In this document: positions 2,620 through 41,916 of the stretch, piece after piece
Layout: every line of letters begins with the position of its first letter
Numbering within the stretch: the first letter of the stretch is position 1
IMG/VR virus record: IMGVR_UViG_651053021_000003
Strand: one strand, 5' to 3'
Origin: a virus
Lineage: Duplodnaviria; Heunggongvirae; Uroviricota; Caudoviricetes
DNA: 47,598 bases
Program-made: the position numbers and the translations under genes
Notes under the pieces: generated by a model
Seen by the model: only the letters and a program-made list of their open reading frames with translations
What the model was told of the DNA's origin: nothing
The model's database searches: none

Positions 2620-3210
2620 ATGTCTCGAATTTTTGCTTACTGTCGGATATCAACGCTGGATCAGACCACCGAAAATCAACGCCGGGAAATCGAAAGTGCA
2701 GGTTTTAAAATCAAACCTCAGCAAATAATCGAAGAACACATTAGCGGCTCAGCAGCAACCAGTGAGCGTCCTGGTTTTAACCGGTTGCTTGCTCGCCTGA
2801 AATGTGGTGATCAATTGATTGTGACAAAACTGGATCGCCTTGGTTGTAATGCAATGGATATCAGGAAAACAGTGGAACAACTGACCGAAACAGGTATCAG
2901 AGTGCATTGCTTAGCATTGGGGGGCATTGACCTGACCAGTCCAACAGGAAAAATGATGATGCAAGTAATTTCAGCAGTCGCTGAATTTGAACGAGACCTT
3001 TTACTTGAACGCACTCATTCCGGGATAGTAAGAGCCCGGGGCGCAGGGAAACGTTTTGGTCGACCACCTGTGTTAAATGAAGAACAGAAACAGGTGGTAT
3101 TCGAACGGATTAAGTCAGGTGTAAGTATAAGTGCCATTGCCCGGGAATTCAAAACCTCGCGGCAAACCATTTTAAGAGCCAAAGCAAAACTTCAGACACC
3201 TGACATATAA
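2620..3210 (+). CDS. pin: Serine recombinase / DNA invertase Pin (Gin/Hin/Cin family), 196 aa
   Basis: N-terminal resolvase catalytic domain (YCRISTLDQ) and C-terminal HTH; size typical of Pin/Gin. Confidence 0.9.
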
Positions 3211-7537: not shown

Positions 7538-10500
7538 TCAACGGATACTGATACCGGAAGCAGCTTTTTTGGTCACAATCACCGTACAGTCTGTGATGTT
7601 ACCTGCGCCCTGATTGCCTTTCTGGAAAATCTTAAACTCCAGAGTGACGTTACCACCACCACTCGGCATATCAATAACCGCACTGTAACTACCGGGAATG
7701 GCTCCTTTAGTTTCTCTGGATGCGATTAATACGCCATTTTTGCGAACTTCAAAACCATAACCCGTGTATCGCGTACCTCCCGGGTTATTACCGCTCCCCG
7801 GATCGTCATACGCCACACCGTTAAAAATAATGGGCGGAATAATGATTTGGCGGTCAAAGTTATGATCATCGTAAATGGTGACTGTAACCGTCCCGTTTGG
7901 TGTTTCCGTGTTACCCCACGTACCAGCCTTTTTCGGGAATGATTTGGATACAGTTTTAACGAAGTCACCTCTGACCTGGTTCGCCTCCAGCATGCCCTTA
8001 ATCGTACAGTTTTCATTTACCGTGACATTATTGAGCGTCCCGGAGTTCGCATTCACGTTACCGCTGATATCAGCATTTCTCGCCGTCAGCCGCCCGTCCG
8101 GTGTCAGGGAAAATGCCGGAGGATTACCGCCGCTGGTAATGGTGGGAGCCGTCAGATACTTCAGGAACACTTCGTTCATGAATATCTGGTTGCCCTGCGC
8201 CACAAACATCGGCGTTTCATTCCCGTTTGCCGGGTCAATAAACGCGATACGGTTAGCGGCAACCAGGAACTGGCTCAGTTTGCCTTCCTCCGTATCCTCC
8301 ATGCTGAGGCCAAGCCCCGCGACATAATGTTTGCCGTCTTTGGTCTGCTCAATTTTGACGCCCCACATGGCATTCCATTTATCGTTGGCGTCCTTCCACT
8401 CTTTCGAAAACTCCTCCAGTCTGCTGGCGTTATCCTCCGTCAGCTCGACTTTTTCCAGCAGCTCCTTGCCGAGATGGGATTCGGTTATCTTGCCTTTGAA
8501 AAAATCCAGGTAACCTTCCGCATCATCGCTCGCCCGACCGACGGCCTCCACGAATGCCGATTTGCCAACGGTGTTCACACTGCGGATATAAAAGTAATAA
8601 TCATGGCCCGGTTTGATATTGATACTGGCGGCTATCCAGTACAGCGCCGTACCAAGATAGCGGGCTGTGGTTTCAACCTGCCTGATATCGGTAATCCGCT
8701 TTTCCGAGAACCAGAACTCAAACTGTACCGTCGGATCATAAATCGCAAGATGCGGCGTGGCGGTTATCTGAAAATAGCCCGGCGTCAGCTCAATCCTCGA
8801 CGGTGCTGCCGGTGCGGCAATCCGGAACGATACCGACGCCGGATCGCCCTGCTGTCCCCACGCATTTACCGCCCGGACTGTCAGCGTGTACCGCCCCAGC
8901 GCCAGTTGCATGAAGCGGTATGTGGTTTCCGTCGTCCGGGCCGTGCTGACCAGCCGCTCACTGCCGTCATCCGCTGCCACGGTCAGGCGAAGCATAAAGC
9001 TCACCCCCTTCACCACCTTCGGCGTGTCCCAGCGCGCCAGCACCTGATATTCCCCGCTGTCTGCGGTGACTTCTGCGGTCAGGTGTTGCACTGCTGGCGG
9101 CGTGACACCATTCACCGTGCCGCTCTGGTCGCCGTCAAAGTACGCCCCGTTATCCACGATGGCCTCTTTTTCCGGTACATGCTGCACGGCGGTGATGGCA
9201 TACGTGCCGTCGTCGTTCTCACGGATACTCACGCAGCGGAACAGGCGCTGGCGCAGCGTCGGCAGCTTCAGCCCCCACACGCTGTATTCAGCAACACCGT
9301 CAGGAACACGGCTCACTTTCACCTTCACGCCGTCGGTGACGGACTGAACCTCCACGCTGACCGGATTGCCACTTCCGTCAACCAGGCTTATCAGCGTGGT
9401 ACCGGAGGATGGCAGCGTGATTTCACGGTCGAGCGTCAGCGTCCGGGTCTGGCTGTTCACCGCCAGCACACGACCACCGGTGCTGATACCGGCATAGTCA
9501 TCATCGCAGATTTCAATAACATCGCCCGGTACATGGCGAAGCCCTTCTGCGCCGACGCTGAAATCCACGGTCTGCGTTTCCAGCAGTTCTGTTTTAATCA
9601 GCCACAGCCCGGCGCGGTGTGCCTGCCCCCGGCTGGTACAGCCAAAAGCATCCATCTTCGTGACGTTACGACCGTAACGGGCAATGGCCTGCGTATCCTC
9701 CACAAGCTCTGTCGCCGTCTCCCAGCCGTTGTTCGGGTCAATCCAGTTCACCTCAACGGCATTATGGCGGTCCTTGAGGGCGCTGAAGCTGTAGCGGAAC
9801 GGCGCGCCATCATCCGGCATCACCACATTACTGCGGTTATAGGTCCACACCTTATCCGACGGTCGGTCCTGCACGAACGTCAGCGTCTGCCCGTTCCATA
9901 CCGGCATACAGCGCATCGCCGAGCAGAAATCACTGAGAACATCCCACGCCTTACGCTGTGTGGTCAGGTAAGCGTTACAGGTGATGCGCGGCTCCGTGCC
10001 GCCAGAGCCGTCCGGCACCGACTGGTCGCAATTCTGGCCGATGACATACAGCGCCCATTTGTCCACATCCGCCGCACCAAGACGTTTACCCATGCCGTAG
10101 CGCGGGTGGGTCAGCATATCCCACAGACACCAGGCCATGTTGTTGCTGTATGCTGGCTTAAACGTTCCGTCCCAGATACCGCTGTATTGCCGCGTCTGCG
10201 GGTTATAGTTCGACGGCACCTGCAGAATGCGCCCGCGAAGATGATAATTACGGCTCACCTGCTGGCTGCCGAACTGTTCCGAGTCCACCTGCACGCCGAC
10301 CAGTGCCGTGTTCGGGTAGCACTGTTTCACATCGATGATTTCGGTGTATGACGACCAGAGCGTTTTGTTCTGCAGCTGGTCTGTGGTGCTGTCCGGTGTC
10401 ATCCTGCGCATCCGGATATTAAACGGGCGCGGCGGCAGGTTACCCACCACCACCGATGCCAGATACTGTGAGGTGGTTTTGCCTTTAATGGTGATGTCTT

Positions 10501-37266: not shown

Positions 37267-38601
37267 ATGTTTAGCTTAATCATGGCCGGAGAACCGGACG
37301 TTTTTGACCGCTGGCCGTGTATGGACCCTGAGCTTAAAGAAGGCAAGGAAAGCTTCTCGATGTCCCGCATGCTGGAAGGCACCCCAAGCGATATTTACAG
37401 TAAATTAACACCAATAAGACCCGATACCTTAAGAGAACTCGCCAAGTTACCGGTGTTGTTCATGACCGAAATTTATACAAAAGATGATGAATATGATACA
37501 AACAAGTACATCAGGATCAGGCTTGGGGAAATAAGAAATTTACGTAAAGATGGTGGCGATATTTTATTTTCTTTCAAGATTAATCATGATTTTGGAGAAA
37601 TAACAAATCCCCAAACGACATTATATAAAGAAACCCTAGGACTAGGATCTTTCGGGTTAAGTCGTACACATTGGGCAGTAAAAAATAAGGATTTGAATAT
37701 TGTTCTGGAATTACTTGGTTTAAACCAAAAAAATAGCCATCTGAAAGGTACAATCAAATTAAAAAAACAAACATACCCAGTAGTCGAGAATATTATAGAT
37801 TATCTTGATTTCATTAGGAAAAACTTTCGTGATGGTCTCATTACCTTTTATCGTGGACACTCTAAAAGCTCATATGAGCTTGTCCCCTCTCTTTACAGAA
37901 AAAATCAAAACGGGACGTACAGGCATCTTGCTTCAGAATCTGATTTAGTACGTGAAATACTCAGCGCAAGACCAAATGAATTTAAGGGGGATAAATTTAC
38001 GATTGATAAACTTGTCCGCATGCAGCATTATGGCTTGCCTACAAGACTCTTAGACATTACATCTAACCCACTGATAGCATTATATTTTGCTTGCTGTTCG
38101 AACCCCGATGAAAACGGACAGGTGATTTCGTTTTCAACAAACAGAAAGAAAATTAAATATTTCGACTCAGATACAGTGAGCTGTATAGCAAACTTATCAC
38201 TTTTATCTTACGAAGAGTTGGAAAAATTGTCTTCCATTGATGCCAGAAAAGGTAATATGGAGTTATTAGAACTCACTGATAAACTTGCAGACCTTATACA
38301 GAATGAAAAATCATATTTCAGAAACAGAATAAGCCCTGATGACTTAAAGAAAGTTGTTTTCCTTAAGGCTAAAATAAATAATGAACGCATACAATCTCAG
38401 GCAGGAGCTTTTCTTCTGTTCGGACTTGATCCCATTTTACCGGAAACAGATGCTGAGTTTCCTCTTAACAGAGTGGAGATAGCGAACAAAAATAAAATTC
38501 TGGAAGAGCTGGCACAGCTTAATATATCCGAAAGCACTGTATATCCCAGCATGGAGAAAACGGCAGCAGAAATTACAAAAAAGTTTTTATCGGTATCATA
38601 A
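37267..38601 (+). CDS. FRG-domain protein (444 aa), function unknown
   Basis: Motifs FYRGHSKSSYELVPSLYR, RMQHYGLPTRLLDITSNPLIALYFAC, QAGAFLLFG; AGGAG RBS; body ~33% GC, first ~45 codons ~50% GC. Confidence 0.8.
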   Translation: MFSLIMAGEPDVFDRWPCMDPELKEGKESFSMSRMLEGTPSDIYSKLTPIRPDTLRELAKLPVLFMTEIYTKDDEYDTNKYIRIRLGEIRNLRKDGGDILFSFKINHDFGEITNPQTTLYKETLGLGSFGLSRTHWAVKNKDLNIVLELLGLNQKNSHLKGTIKLKKQTYPVVENIIDYLDFIRKNFRDGLITFYRGHSKSSYELVPSLYRKNQNGTYRHLASESDLVREILSARPNEFKGDKFTIDKLVRMQHYGLPTRLLDITSNPLIALYFACCSNPDENGQVISFSTNRKKIKYFDSDTVSCIANLSLLSYEELEKLSSIDARKGNMELLELTDKLADLIQNEKSYFRNRISPDDLKKVVFLKAKINNERIQSQAGAFLLFGLDPILPETDAEFPLNRVEIANKNKILEELAQLNISESTVYPSMEKTAAEITKKFLSVS

Positions 38602-38838
38602 AGGGATAAACTAAAGGCAACGAAAACTAAGACTGCGCAGTCTTCAGGTGAAAGTACTCATCGGGAACGGTTTCAGGGTCAAAAACTGGAAGCTCCAGTG
38701 GCCTTGAGCTGCTCCCTATAAATTAACATATCTCAATGTTATCAATGTCTGCTTTTGGCACAAAGCGGACAACCACGCTAGCTCTACCCTGTGCCACAAA
38801 ATGTCAATTTGCATCTGAACTAATGCACTTTAATCTCG

Positions 38839-39261
38839 TCACTTCAATAAATACCGAACATCCCCCTGATAAAACGACAATATGCGCTGCATAACTTCAC
38901 TCTTCCGGCACTCGCGACAGATTATGTTCTGACGCCTGTCGTAGCGACGTATTTCTCCGTCAGGTAATGACCAGATAAGGTCCGGATCAACCGCAGATGG
39001 TTTCTTCAGCTTTGCCCTTGAGAGCTTTTTACGGGCATTTTGCCAGTCCTTACGCGCCTGTTCAGACGGGAATAACCCGTAACCAGAGTTGTATACATCG
39101 CCGCTGGCAACCAGCTCTCTTGCGAGAACGCTCATCAGAAATCTTGTCGCACCTGTTTTGACTTCCAGTTGCCGTAACGTCTCACGCCCACTCTGGCGTA
39201 CGAGTTCAACAACCTGCCCTTTAATTTTTTCTCGCTCTTCTTGTGTAAAAACTTTTGCCAC
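38839..39261 (-). CDS. Hypothetical early-region protein (140 aa)
   Basis: Basic protein with CxxC pair near C-terminus; downstream of putative initiator gene. Confidence 0.45.
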   Translation of the reverse strand: MAKVFTQEEREKIKGQVVELVRQSGRETLRQLEVKTGATRFLMSVLARELVASGDVYNSGYGLFPSEQARKDWQNARKKLSRAKLKKPSAVDPDLIWSLPDGEIRRYDRRQNIICRECRKSEVMQRILSFYQGDVRYLLK

Positions 39262-39301
39262 AAGTCCTCCTGAAAATTACCTCATGACCAGAAATCAACA
39301 C

Positions 39302-40378
39302 TTACCCCCTGAAGCCCGGTGGAATTTCGGTATCCGGTTCAGAAATATGATTCACACAACGCTGGTTGTTCGTGCCGCTTACCGGGAGCAGCCAGGGGTT
39401 TTCAAAATTCCGGTCCGGTCCAAAAAACGTCGTCGCTCGCTGAACAAATTCCGTTCCCGTTTTCCCGGTAGCCGCAAGGTATCTTGCGTAACGCCTCACG
39501 CCATCCAGCATGGCCTCTGGTGACACCCCCTCGCGTAATCTGGCCTTCCAAGCACTGAAAGCGGATTTCTTCGGGTTTGCCCCAGCACGCAACGGGTATT
39601 CCCGCCAGACCTGTTCGAACACATCCGGATAATCCACTCGTCCCACAGGCTGCCCGGTGTTTTCCGGGACTACCCGATCGGCTTCCCGCTGAATGGCGGA
39701 ATCGGCTTCAGGCTGCTGCAGTTGGTGTGATTGCTCCGGCCTTGCGGTCATCACCTGCTGCACAGCGCCCGAATCGGCTTTCAGCGCATACGCTGAATCG
39801 GCTTCCGGTGTCGTGCCTGCTGGCTGACCAAGATTGACGGTCTGAACATCCCCTGCCTGGTTCGTGGCGTTTTTTACGCCATGGACCATAGTGTTTTGAT
39901 CTTCTTGATCTGTATCTTTATCTGTATCTTTATCTGTCGTGACTCGTCGTGACATGTGCGTGACATTTCGTGACGCGCCGTGACAATCGCCATTTTGTTC
40001 CCGCTTTCTTTCCCTCTCTCGCTGCGCCCTCTTGCGCTCTGCAGGAGATTTTGCGGTTTGCGAAATATTGCCGTTGTCCTCTTTAAGCACCTGGCGTTTT
40101 TCCCATCCAGTGATTAAATCACCATCAAGTACCCGCCCCTGCATCGTCTGCAAAATTGAATCAATTACCTCTTCTGTCACGTCGAGCGCACTTGCCAAAT
40201 CTTCTGTCGTGACATCAATGTGACCTCGCGTGACATTTCGTGACGCGCTCACCAGGAGGTGGATATACACTGCCATCACTGTTGCAATTGGCTGCCCTGA
40301 CACCCTGGCAATTGTTCGCCACTTAGGGTCATTTGGCATGTCATGCCATAATCTGAGCCAGGCGTTAGCCATACTCAC
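39302..40378 (-). CDS. Putative replication initiation protein (O-like) containing internal iteron arrays
   Basis: Position equivalent to lambda O; two arrays of CGTGAC repeats at ~10-bp spacing inside the coding sequence. Confidence 0.45.
   Translation of the reverse strand: MSMANAWLRLWHDMPNDPKWRTIARVSGQPIATVMAVYIHLLVSASRNVTRGHIDVTTEDLASALDVTEEVIDSILQTMQGRVLDGDLITGWEKRQVLKEDNGNISQTAKSPAERKRAQRERERKREQNGDCHGASRNVTHMSRRVTTDKDTDKDTDQEDQNTMVHGVKNATNQAGDVQTVNLGQPAGTTPEADSAYALKADSGAVQQVMTARPEQSHQLQQPEADSAIQREADRVVPENTGQPVGRVDYPDVFEQVWREYPLRAGANPKKSAFSAWKARLREGVSPEAMLDGVRRYARYLAATGKTGTEFVQRATTFFGPDRNFENPWLLPVSGTNNQRCVNHISEPDTEIPPGFRG
39909..39984. repeat. Iteron-like array A: tandem 12-bp TCTGTATCTTTA x2 followed by five CGTGAC repeats at 10-11 bp spacing
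   Basis: Direct reading of 39901-39990. Confidence 0.6.
40208..40244. repeat. Iteron-like array B: four (C/T)GTGAC repeats at 10-11 bp spacing; shares 19-mer CGTGACATTTCGTGACGCG with array A
   Basis: Direct reading of 40201-40250. Confidence 0.55.
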
Positions 40379-40443
40379 CTCTTTTGATACCGAATCTTTT
40401 TACTCACAAATTGCCGGAAGCGATTCGATATGGCTATTGTCAG

Positions 40444-40869
40444 TCAATGTACTGCCACAGCATTTCCTGCCGGGCCACCACGGTTCATCTGATTGAAACC
40501 GGCGATTGCCACTGCGACAAAATCATCAGCGTCTCTCACCAATCGCTCCCGCGTCTCCACCAGCTCCCGAAAATAAGCTGAACTGTGGCTGCGCATTCTG
40601 GCCACCAGCAAAGGTGGCATTGCCTTTTCGATCGCTGGTAACAACGCCTGAATTTTTTCAACTGCATCAGGGGTGTCTTTCTCTACCCAGCGGAAAATTT
40701 TCTGAGTATTGCGAGCCAGGGCTTCCGGATGGCTGTCGTCATACAGTTCCGGGAACGTCATTCCCAGCTCGAAATACGCTTTGGTAATTTTCGCAGCCGG
40801 TACTTTTTCGCCGTCCGGATGCGCCCAGGCATTCATCGCCATGCGGATGTGTTCATGCTTGATTTTCAT
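40444..40869 (-). CDS. YdaT-like protein (CII-position regulator/toxin-like)
   Basis: Begins MKIKHEHI and ends VH, ~140 aa, like Rac YdaT; follows the Cro-like gene. Confidence 0.65.
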   Translation of the reverse strand: MKIKHEHIRMAMNAWAHPDGEKVPAAKITKAYFELGMTFPELYDDSHPEALARNTQKIFRWVEKDTPDAVEKIQALLPAIEKAMPPLLVARMRSHSSAYFRELVETRERLVRDADDFVAVAIAGFNQMNRGGPAGNAVAVH

Positions 40870-41120
40870 GAATCAACTCCCATCAGCTTTTTCGTAGTAG
40901 TTTTATTCCTGCCAATAGTTAAAATTGCATCGGCAGAAAATAATCCGTTTGATGCAAGAGCGATTTTTTCAGCGTAATTTGTTTCGCCGGTATATTCTGT
41001 GCGAGGCAATTTTCCGTTATCCATCCATTTATAGATTGCTCTTTGGCTGACACCACAAACGTCGGCCACAACAGCAACGCGAACAGTTTTGATTACATCT
41101 TCAAGTGTTTTCTGGTTCAT
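40866..41120 (-). CDS. Cro/YdaS-like HTH transcriptional regulator
   Basis: Start set at ATG 41120 (GAGGG RBS); HTH-like VADVCGVSQRAIYKWM; divergent from repressor gene. Confidence 0.7.
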   Translation of the reverse strand: MNQKTLEDVIKTVRVAVVADVCGVSQRAIYKWMDNGKLPRTEYTGETNYAEKIALASNGLFSADAILTIGRNKTTTKKLMGVDS

Positions 41121-41199
41121 ATCACCCTCACAATGTGAACTTTTAGTACATGCTATAACAGAACTGACAGTACATTCAAGAGCGAATATCATTGAACTT
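41121..41199. promoter_or_regulatory. Divergent promoter/operator region of the immunity switch
   Basis: 79-bp intergenic region between divergent regulators; AGTACAT(G/T) occurs twice ~24 bp apart (~41145 and ~41169). Confidence 0.4.
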
Positions 41200-41619
41200 A
41201 TGGTTCATGAAGATAAAGCGCGTAAAGAGTTCGCCAGTAGGCTTGCGCTAGCCTGTGAAAACGCTGGTTATGAACAACATGGAAGGCAGGCAGAAATTGC
41301 CCGTCGAATGAAATTAACACCAAAAGCGGTTAGCAAATGGTTTAATGGCGAAACAATTCCTCGCCGGGAGAAATTAAGGGAATTAGCAACACTAATAGGA
41401 ACAACACCAACCTATCTTTTGGGAGAGGATACAGAAGAAAGTGGACAGGTACGTTTCTATCAGGAGTTAAATCCAAGACAAAAAATCATCATTGACCTTC
41501 TGGACGAGCTCCCTGACAGTGAGACAGATGAACTTTTAAAAACTCTTGAAGAGAAAAAACAGAAGTACAATGCAATTTACGAAGAGTTAGCACGAAAGAA
41601 AAAACAAAAAGCCTCTTAA
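41200..41619 (+). CDS. DicA-like XRE-family repressor
   Basis: HTH QAEIARRMKLTPKAVSKWFNGE and C-terminal region resembling DicA; start set at internal ATG 41200. Confidence 0.75.
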   Translation: MVHEDKARKEFASRLALACENAGYEQHGRQAEIARRMKLTPKAVSKWFNGETIPRREKLRELATLIGTTPTYLLGEDTEESGQVRFYQELNPRQKIIIDLLDELPDSETDELLKTLEEKKQKYNAIYEELARKKKQKAS

Positions 41620-41916
41620 ACCAGCATAAATCCGGTAGCGCCTTCCTCCGGGTTTGTGCTTCACTTTATCCCATCTCATTTTTTTACACACAAAATGTAC
41701 TAAAAGTACTTTACAACAATGAACGCAAAGTACATTATATGCCTGCCACCCACCCCGCCCCACAGAATGCAGGGCAATACTTCGAGTTACCAGGCAGTGG
41801 TCATGGGTTAAGTAGCCAGCCCGAGGCGTAAGAACATGACGGCAGGGTTCAACTTTAATAACTATGCAGCAGGTTTTTGTTCCGCTACCCCGGCGTTAAG
41901 GGGAAATGAGGTCAAC

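Follow-up and report, generated by a model that had tools for sequence, protein, structure and literature searches.

Origins built from direct repeats have been described inside the initiator genes of several phages, including the O gene of lambda and its counterparts in Shiga toxin (Stx) phages (PMC7466680), gene 38 of SPP1, which contains oriL (PMC6316719), and the replisome organizer genes of TP901-1 and Tuc2009 (PMC8965321), with the RepA_N initiators as a further experimental precedent (PMC7145576). Within a 47,598-nucleotide stretch of DNA from a virus of the class Caudoviricetes (IMG/VR record IMGVR_UViG_651053021_000003; the whole stretch is referred to here as the window), two arrays of short repeats spaced at one helical turn lie inside the gene for a putative replication initiator. 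We consider it likely that the region 39858-40245 is a theta-replication origin of this phage located within its own initiator gene, that is, an intragenic iteron origin that combines an unrelated family of initiators with conserved twin arrays. This reading draws on the layout of the locus, the predicted fold of the initiator, the N-terminal domain as the constant companion of the arrays and the experimental precedents above. The elements concerned are the following:

39302..40372, minus strand: replication initiator ('phage replisome organizer') gene, assigned from the open reading frame (ORF) list, phrog_3729, identity to TRITO_36 and the names of its homologues
40208..40245, minus strand: array 1 (gene-proximal), four GTCAC(G/A) cores at spacings of 10, 10 and 11 bp
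39938..39985, minus strand: array 2 (distal, candidate origin core), five GTCACG cores at spacings of 10, 10, 11 and 10 bp
40176..40181, plus strand: single inverted copy of the core, ~30 bp downstream of array 1
39890..39937, no strand assigned: low-stability tract, A-rich on the coding strand, candidate DNA-unwinding element, encoding TDKDTDKDTDQEDQ
39858..39888, no strand assigned: palindrome with 13-bp arms, TGGTTCGTGGCGT-5 nt-ACGCCATGGACCA, just past the A-rich tract

Repeat arrays within the initiator gene

The clustering and phasing of the repeats is non-random. On the plus strand, CGTGAC begins at 39938, 39948, 39959, 39969 and 39979 in array 2 (spacing 10, 11, 10 and 10 bp), and array 1 comprises CGTGAC at 40208, 40229 and 40239 together with TGTGAC at 40219 (spacing 11, 10 and 10 bp), as had been reported in a preliminary description of this DNA, which placed five CGTGAC at 10-11 bp intervals in 39938-39984 and four (C/T)GTGAC in 40208-40244. 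The 19-mer CGTGACATTTCGTGACGCG, also reported there as common to both arrays, occurs exactly twice, at 39959-39977 and 40229-40247, against an expectation of 0. The hexamer CGTGAC alone is not enriched across the window (25 found versus 19 expected), and 9 of the 25 copies fall within 310 bp. The phased pair GTCAC-N5/6-GTCAC occurs seven times in the window, every time within 39939-40244 (expected 0.17; none of 100 shuffles reached seven). Similarly, ten GTCAC or GTGAC pentamers are located in 39900-40260, with 0.5 expected per 320 bp (Poisson P ~2e-10, or ~3e-8 once corrected for the number of windows). No second cluster of the core motif was found elsewhere in the 47.6-kb window, while DnaA boxes with at most one mismatch were absent in and near the initiator gene and were not enriched in the window. 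The single inverted core, which the preliminary description did not list, lies in the LDVTE codons, at the turn of a predicted helix-turn-helix.

The gene that contains these repeats is 100% identical at the DNA level to TRITO_36 of Escherichia phage Tritos, annotated as 'Replication protein, N-terminal phage replisome organiser', and is 98-99% identical to genes of several further E. coli phages. Its assignment as a replication initiator, originally made from the letters alone, is borne out by a match of the protein to phrog_3729 ('replication initiation protein') at E 1e-257 with the PHROGs hidden Markov models (HMMs). PHROG 'replisome organizer' families also match, at E 4e-6 and 2e-4, and NCBI names the homologues 'phage replisome organizer'; neither Pfam nor NCBIfam gave a match above threshold. 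As mechanically listed, and as first described, the ORF comprises 358 amino acids (aa) from a GTG at 40378, six bases before an ATG at 40372. The ORF itself stands, but its true start is almost certainly ATG 40372, giving 356 aa, because homologues begin with MANxW, the Tritos coding sequence is 1071 nt long and a GAGGTG Shine-Dalgarno sequence precedes the ATG. Counted from this ATG, array 1 occupies nt 129-160 of the gene and array 2 nt 389-430 (135-166 and 395-436, respectively, from GTG 40378).

Array 2 borders directly on the 40 bp of the gene with the lowest duplex stability. The minimum among 40-bp duplexes of 39300-40400 lies at 39894-39933 (nearest-neighbour dG -43.4; mean -57.2, sd 3.7), where the GC content is 0.25 and 68% of coding-strand bases are purines, and the GC content of the A-rich tract as a whole (0.25-0.35) is the lowest in the gene. 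The tract contains approximately three copies of TCTTTATCTGTA on the plus strand at 39903-39937 (95% matches), which read as (GATAMA)n on the coding strand; the tandem 12-bp AT-rich repeat noted earlier beside array 2 is therefore present, with about three copies rather than two. Beyond the tract, the hairpin of the palindrome is retained in eight enterobacterial relatives, in which the outer arms differ yet stay complementary, and the palindrome is a possible accessory element of the origin. It falls in the MVHGVKNATNQ codons, and its plus strand scores as terminator-like. The peptide VHGEK is also found in initiators with unrelated N-terminal domains (P0033, P0047, P0106 and that of Stx phage 75/02) and therefore marks the junction between the N-module and the C-module.

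Conservation of the arrays and alternative explanations

Homologous loci were gathered by exact-protein lookup, by a scan of 185,579 species genomes and from annotated phages, and 49 of these were examined for arrays. A shared plan, consisting of array 1, a gap and array 2, was found in 43 loci from Gamma- and Betaproteobacteria and their phages, with hosts that include Escherichia, Shigella, Salmonella, Yersinia, Serratia, Pantoea, Erwinia, Rahnella, Pseudomonas, Marinobacter, Gilvimarinus, Bordetella, Acidovorax, Castellaniella, Aquitalea and Chromobacterium, as well as an Aeromonas phage, and the layout holds down to 38% identity in the N-terminal domain (Ralstonia phage Firinga). Array 1 comprises 2-6 copies at gene nt ~129-185, a position shared by 40 or more relatives, while array 2, likewise of 2-6 copies, was present in 44 of the 49 loci directly before the A-rich tract, which in most relatives follows it immediately as a hexamer repeat of the (GATAAA/GATACA)n type. 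Copy number in arrays 1 and 2 varies, from 4+5 here to 6+6 in L006, 6+5 in L011 and 3+3 in others. The gap between the arrays has a mode of 227-231 bp; inter-array helical offsets are non-uniform (R 0.52, n = 43), from which no claim is drawn because the loci are phylogenetically related and the gaps span 189-319 bp. The module is widespread, with the 5' half of the initiator gene present in 2077 of 5426 complete E. coli genomes, including O157:H7, and the module also occurring in phages and prophages of Pseudomonas, Aeromonas, Bordetella, Ralstonia and others.

The core itself takes four forms across these loci, GTCACG, GTAACG, CGAACGC and GCAACGC, found in 31, 7, 4 and 1 loci, respectively. 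The core word is always the same in the two arrays of a given locus, with no discordant case among the 43, as expected if one protein reads both. The peptides encoded by the arrays follow the core word, for example SRNVTRGHxDVT with GTCACG, GNAGVTQSNA with GTAACG and NATERGRTQ with CGAACGC, and the array-1 loop is the only part of the N-terminal domain that changes wholesale with it. This domain is the only gene product that always accompanies the arrays; the neighbouring genes and the C-terminal domain vary.

Departures from the shared plan were found in a few lineages. L036, L038 and L043 are without array 1 and retain approximately two degenerate CGAAC-like sites together with the A-rich tract, suggesting that array 2 and the tract form the core of the element and that array 1 is auxiliary; L049 is also among the lineages that have kept array 2 and the tract and lost array 1. 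L047 (a Serratia metagenome-assembled genome) and L051 (Pantoea) encode the same N-terminal domain joined, at gene nt ~330-600, to another C-terminal part with a GIY-YIG-like motif (YVYYVA...GISRNPWAR), and both arrays and the A-rich tract are absent. In the E. coli allele P0020 (302 aa, alignment A1), a deletion takes in array 2 from its middle onward, together with the A-rich tract and the palindrome, and the prophage carrying it would be origin-deleted if the origin model is true. Stx phage 75/02 has only the C-terminal half in common (64% aa identity) and carries a (TTCCTG)n tract at the domain junction without GTCAC arrays, and is uninformative on iterons.

These losses bear on a variant of the origin model, compatible with it and possible though somewhat doubtful, in which the origin consists of array 2 and the tract only and array 1 is a negative-control locus acting by titration, by handcuffing or as an autoregulatory roadblock. 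The four lineages that dispense with array 1 fit such a role, and the two arrays, being directly repeated and 189-319 bp apart, could be joined by a DNA loop, with the extra inverted site following array 1. Twin sets of iterons with a control function are established for the P1 and F plasmids. However, the present data accord equally with a positive role, limitation of copy number would be of little gain to lytic phage replication, and the extra promoter-distal iterons of Stx phages are needed for replication rather than inhibitory (PMC7466680).

It is unlikely that the arrays are transcriptional operators with the true origin elsewhere, serving either autorepression by the initiator or a CII/YdaT-like regulator that drives an antisense promoter. 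The case for operators rests partly on position and spacing. Lambda CII recognises direct repeats one helical turn apart, a spacing that resembles that of the arrays, and a protein bound to array 1, in the early part of the gene, could block transcription. In addition, -35-like hexamers (GTGACA) arise from the cores on the antisense strand, with one weak promoter-like match inside array 2 at 39960-39987 (plus strand). Such matches are not above chance (two found versus 3.1 expected), however, and a scan of 38700-41700 for promoters and terminators yielded nothing above chance. The arrays are also present in loci that have no YdaT/CII-like gene, such as those of Ralstonia phage Firinga and Pseudomonas phage phi1, the window holds no second motif cluster, and three to six phased sites beside a melt-prone tract constitute the classic layout of an origin.

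The correspondence between core word and loop peptide could be taken further, in that the array-1 loop might itself contribute to iteron recognition, such that gene conversion between the arrays, by carrying one DNA change into both, would alter the sites and the binding surface together. We think this improbable; if true, new origin specificities and incompatibility groups could arise by a route built into the gene. In a more modest form of the idea, array 1 may be a handcuffing or autoregulatory locus of the plasmid type inside a phage initiator gene.

Whatever the role of each array, the repeats are conserved at the DNA level, independently of coding, and are not a by-product of peptide repeats. 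The cores are read in all three codon phases (2, 0, 1 and 0 in array 1; 1, 2, 0, 2 and 0 in array 2), so that no single peptide motif can generate them, and to judge from the sequence the repeated peptides (ASRNVT, VTT and TDKDTDKD) are consequences of the DNA repeats, as the preliminary description had proposed. Array 1 encodes a surface loop, SASRNVTRGHIDVT, between helix 29-45 and the helix-turn-helix, which coincides with a dip in model confidence (pLDDT), and array 2 together with the A-rich tract encodes a linker that is disordered in the model; both loop and linker are indel hotspots of the family alignment. Codon usage was compared, as raw counts, within the GTCAC class across 25 distinct but related loci, whose sources include Escherichia, Serratia, Pseudomonas, Bordetella, Acidovorax, Aquitalea, Chromobacterium and Gilvimarinus. 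Codons overlapping the cores are 92-100% one codon (Ser TCA 24/25; Val GTC 25/25 and 23/23; Gly GGT 23/23; His CAC 24/24; Thr ACG 25/25 and 22/23). In contrast, conserved residues that the cores do not touch are mostly encoded by 2-6 codons, the commonest of which accounts for a fraction of 0.28-0.78 (0.83 and 0.96 for two Asp codons), and the invariant peptide WLRLWHDMPNDPKWRT just upstream has fractions of 0.28-0.68, save for one Asp codon at 0.96. The inverted GTGAC is retained in ~21 of the 25 loci, with Val encoded by GTG wherever the peptide is DVT and one locus carrying GTGAC in another frame. Conservation of the protein through different codons without the repeats, an outcome raised in the preliminary description, is thus the opposite of what was found, as the synonymous sites of the cores are frozen.

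It is correspondingly very hard to sustain that the DNA repeats are a mere shadow of selected amino-acid repeats (SRNVT, DVT and TDKD). ASRNVT and VTT(E/D) do recur at both sites, and homologues of the GTCAC class show good conservation of SASxNVTRGHxDVT, the array-1 peptide, but the use of all three phases, the freezing of synonymous sites that are mostly free outside the cores and the location of the sites in a low-confidence loop and a disordered linker, both prone to indels, speak against it, as does the complete change of peptide (to GNAGVTQSNA or NATERGRTQ) that accompanies a change of DNA word. Nor is it credible that replication slippage and gene conversion have left the repeats as low-complexity DNA without function, in parts of the gene that tolerate it: copy number does differ between alleles and the adjacent (GATAMA)n is a typical slippage product, but position, phasing and core are kept across genera of very different base composition while the spacers vary, and neutral repeats would decay or vanish, whereas only 5 of the 49 loci are without arrays.

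The initiator protein and a model for its action

Two parts of the initiator are relevant to how the repeats might be used:

39989..40372, minus strand: coding region of the N-terminal domain, aa 1-128, a putative origin-binding winged helix
39305..39370, minus strand: DnaT-like tail, the last 22 residues, NNQRCVNHISEPDTEIPPGFRG, a candidate hook into the primosome/helicase-loading pathway of the host

The structural model comprises a helical N-terminal domain (aa 1-~95, pLDDT ~80-95), a disordered linker (aa ~128-243) and a small helical C-terminal domain, with 45% of the full-length model disordered. The preliminary description had suggested looking for an O-like or DnaD-like fold, and it is the second that the model suggests: the N-terminal domain is predicted to be a winged helix, closest to the N-terminal domain of DnaD (DnaD-NTD) and to an iteron-binding RepA_N plasmid initiator, and no homology to O was detected. 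A Foldseek search of the full-length model against the PDB returned no match (best E 3), the N-terminal domain gave no match to PF06970 (RepA_N) at E values up to 10, and the initiator gave no match to Pfam Phage_rep_O.

The tail is 14/22 identical to residues 158-179 of E. coli DnaT (phmmer against the PDB), both lying at the chain end and sharing ...SEPDxxIPPGFRG, and the NCBIfam DnaT model matches initiator residues 335-358 at E 0.0015. No Pfam match to PF17948, the DnaT-like C-terminal domain, was obtained for the initiator, and a profile of the Tritos-type C-terminal domain (A1) matches DnaT at E 0.7, over the last 25 residues. A DnaT-like character for the C-terminal domain as a whole was considered and rejected, as the supporting match at E 3e-7 came from PF17948-bearing homologues mixed into alignment A2. 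The tail has the appearance of a short linear motif that the phage either copied from the primosome adaptor of the host or has in common with it; in replication restart, DnaT is the adaptor that connects PriA/PriB with DnaB/DnaC (PMC13377028, PMC4132743). An IPxGF(R/K)G ending also occurs on homologues with other C-terminal domains (P0094 and P0119).

Relatives differ in whether a helicase-loader gene comes right after the initiator. An IstB/DnaC-like loader is found there in L003, L004, L005 and L008 and a lambda-P-like loader in L009, the initiators of these loader-bearing relatives being 47-58% identical. In the phage studied here DUF977 directly follows the initiator and no loader is annotated in the 6 kb downstream, and L006 and L007 are likewise without a loader gene after the initiator.

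On this basis we infer the following for what binds the repeats, where the duplex melts, how the helicase is recruited and what array 1 does. The winged helix of the N-terminal domain would bind the GTCACG cores, of which there is one per helical turn, placing all sites on one face of the DNA. Cooperative filling of the five sites of array 2 would distort the DNA, leading the adjoining (GATAMA)n tract at 39890-39937 to melt, with array 1, ~230 bp upstream, probably assisting array 2 by looping or wrapping. The C-terminal part of the initiator, including the DnaT-like tail, may link the open complex to the helicase-loading machinery of the host, and recruitment through this tail is the weakest step of the model. 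Transcription of the operon, which is rightward and on the minus strand here (cro-like, CII/YdaT-like, initiator), would traverse the origin, as in lambda.

Several points weigh against interpreting the locus as an origin. Five of the 49 homologues of the N-terminal domain have no clear arrays, and the association of the arrays with this domain is partly forced by linkage, because the arrays lie inside the coding sequence of the domain and its linker. GTCAC and GTAAC both occur within one close protein subgroup and L029 mixes them, and so what look like core-word classes may be tolerated degeneracy combined with concerted evolution, not distinct specificities. Likeness of fold alone is no proof of DNA binding, given that DnaD-NTD itself binds no DNA (PMC7145576). 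Against PF09681 (Phage_rep_org_N) the N-terminal domain scores 16.6 bits, below the cut-off of 23.3 (E 0.0081), in an alignment that is end-to-end though weak (residues 5-123 to positions 1-119 of the 121 in the profile); NCBIfam, the source of the equivalent TIGR01714, gave no match. Alignment of its profile by hhalign with lambda O, SPP1 G38P and TP901-1 ORF13, using single-sequence templates of low sensitivity, gave no similarity (probability 0.08 for lambda O). In addition, no description of these repeats was found in the openly searchable literature on Tritos, on iterons of replisome organizer or DnaT-like prophage genes and on Eru replication types, a search that did not cover subscription literature.

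If the origin model is correct, it has several consequences. The replication module is common yet unstudied, and a known origin would offer a handle for predicting which prophages are replication-competent (P0020, for example, has lost the A-rich tract and some of array 2), a basis for incompatibility and exclusion between co-resident prophages and a start for origin-based vectors or decoys. The family would also be a clear natural case of dual coding, with up to ten putative protein-binding sites in three reading frames on one ORF, and its four core variants allow the evolution of specificity to be studied. The DnaT-tail copy suggests a route into the host loading pathway for a phage without its own helicase loader.

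The initiator gene is located in a lambdoid early-right operon (cro-like, CII/YdaT-like, initiator and DUF977), the surrounding genes being assigned from the ORF list, HMM searches and the Tritos annotation:

41089-41619, plus strand: CI-like repressor gene
40866-41192, minus strand: cro-like gene
40444-40869, minus strand: CII/YdaT-like gene
38839-39261, minus strand: DUF977 gene

A 444-aa ORF at 37267-38601, on the opposite (plus) strand, separates the replication module from the genes downstream; neither Pfam nor NCBIfam gave a match for it, its sole match being phrog_4962 (function not known), and it looks like an inserted accessory gene of the moron type. Positions 3009-3164 and 9490-10093 of phage Tritos (L001) are counterparts of the window regions flanking the initiator, and Tritos carries near its replication module a HokD toxin, the DicF small RNA, dicB and ydfD (a Qin-like cell-division-inhibition cassette) and an ImmA/IrrE-XRE pair. 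Within the initiator gene itself, GAAGCCGAT(TC) occurs 3-4 times in 39677-39805 (minus strand) at spacings of 24, 72 and 24 bp in one reading frame, repeating the peptide PEADSA, and these copies may represent either repetition at the peptide level or a further group of sites. Similar copies of GAAGCCGAT are present in Stx phage 75/02 (spacing 23 and 75 bp), and allele P0005 has a 32-aa deletion between two copies.

Comparison with known systems

The locus shares its general plan with lambda ori and with the six-iteron variants of Stx phages 933W and P27, in which the repeats are placed centrally in the initiator gene, where it encodes the linker that joins the N- and C-terminal domains. Within the O gene, lambda iterons occupy nt 349-433, array 2 nt 389-430 of the gene described here, and the operon position after the cro and cII analogues is the same. 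In both, an AT-rich tract lies on the promoter-distal side of the iterons, and in lambda ori, as here, a palindrome follows beyond it. The likeness to lambda proposed in the preliminary description thus holds for iterons followed by an AT-rich tract in mid-gene, but not for unit size, spacing or protein homology. In lambda, the iterons are 18 bp long, have internal dyad symmetry and recur every 20-24 bp, whereas those described here have 6-bp asymmetric cores every 10-11 bp; lambda has a single array, whereas a second one is present here inside the codons of the DNA-binding domain; and lambda O has no detectable homology to this initiator, which on the sequence comparisons is not in the lambda O family. 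Extra iterons in Stx phages add residues to the initiator protein (PMC7466680).

Among Gram-positive replisome organizers, SPP1 G38P (oriL), TP901-1 ORF13 and Tuc2009 Rep2009 (PF09681) bind direct repeats in their own genes beside an AT-rich unwinding element (PMC6316719, PMC8965321). As here, a low-complexity peptide mirrors the DNA repeats, and the NCBI and PHROG names of the present initiator point to this group. The second G38P-binding site of SPP1 is a separate origin ~13 kb away, in contrast to the intragenic second array of this locus, and the present hosts are Proteobacteria; the initiator appears to be at best a distant, sub-threshold relative. The RepA_N initiators, including those of pSK41 and pTZ2162 and the PLE RepA of Vibrio cholerae, are not matched here at the sequence level through PF06970. 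The resemblance to host DnaT is confined to the C-terminal 22 residues (14/22), the rest of the C-terminal domain being not detectably DnaT-like (E 0.7).

Two separated, directly repeated arrays for one initiator are also found in P1 (oriR and incA) and F (incB and incC). In these plasmids the arrays flank the rep gene, their units are ~19 bp long and the second set is a proven negative regulator, whereas both arrays of this locus lie inside the initiator gene. The mechanism proposed here is unsurprising, as an origin inside an initiator gene is a familiar arrangement, but the twin-array layout is not described in the cases found. New relative to those cases are the brevity of the cores, which recur at every helical turn; the presence of a second conserved array where the DNA-binding domain is encoded, accompanied by an inverted site; and the four core variants, which always switch in both arrays together.

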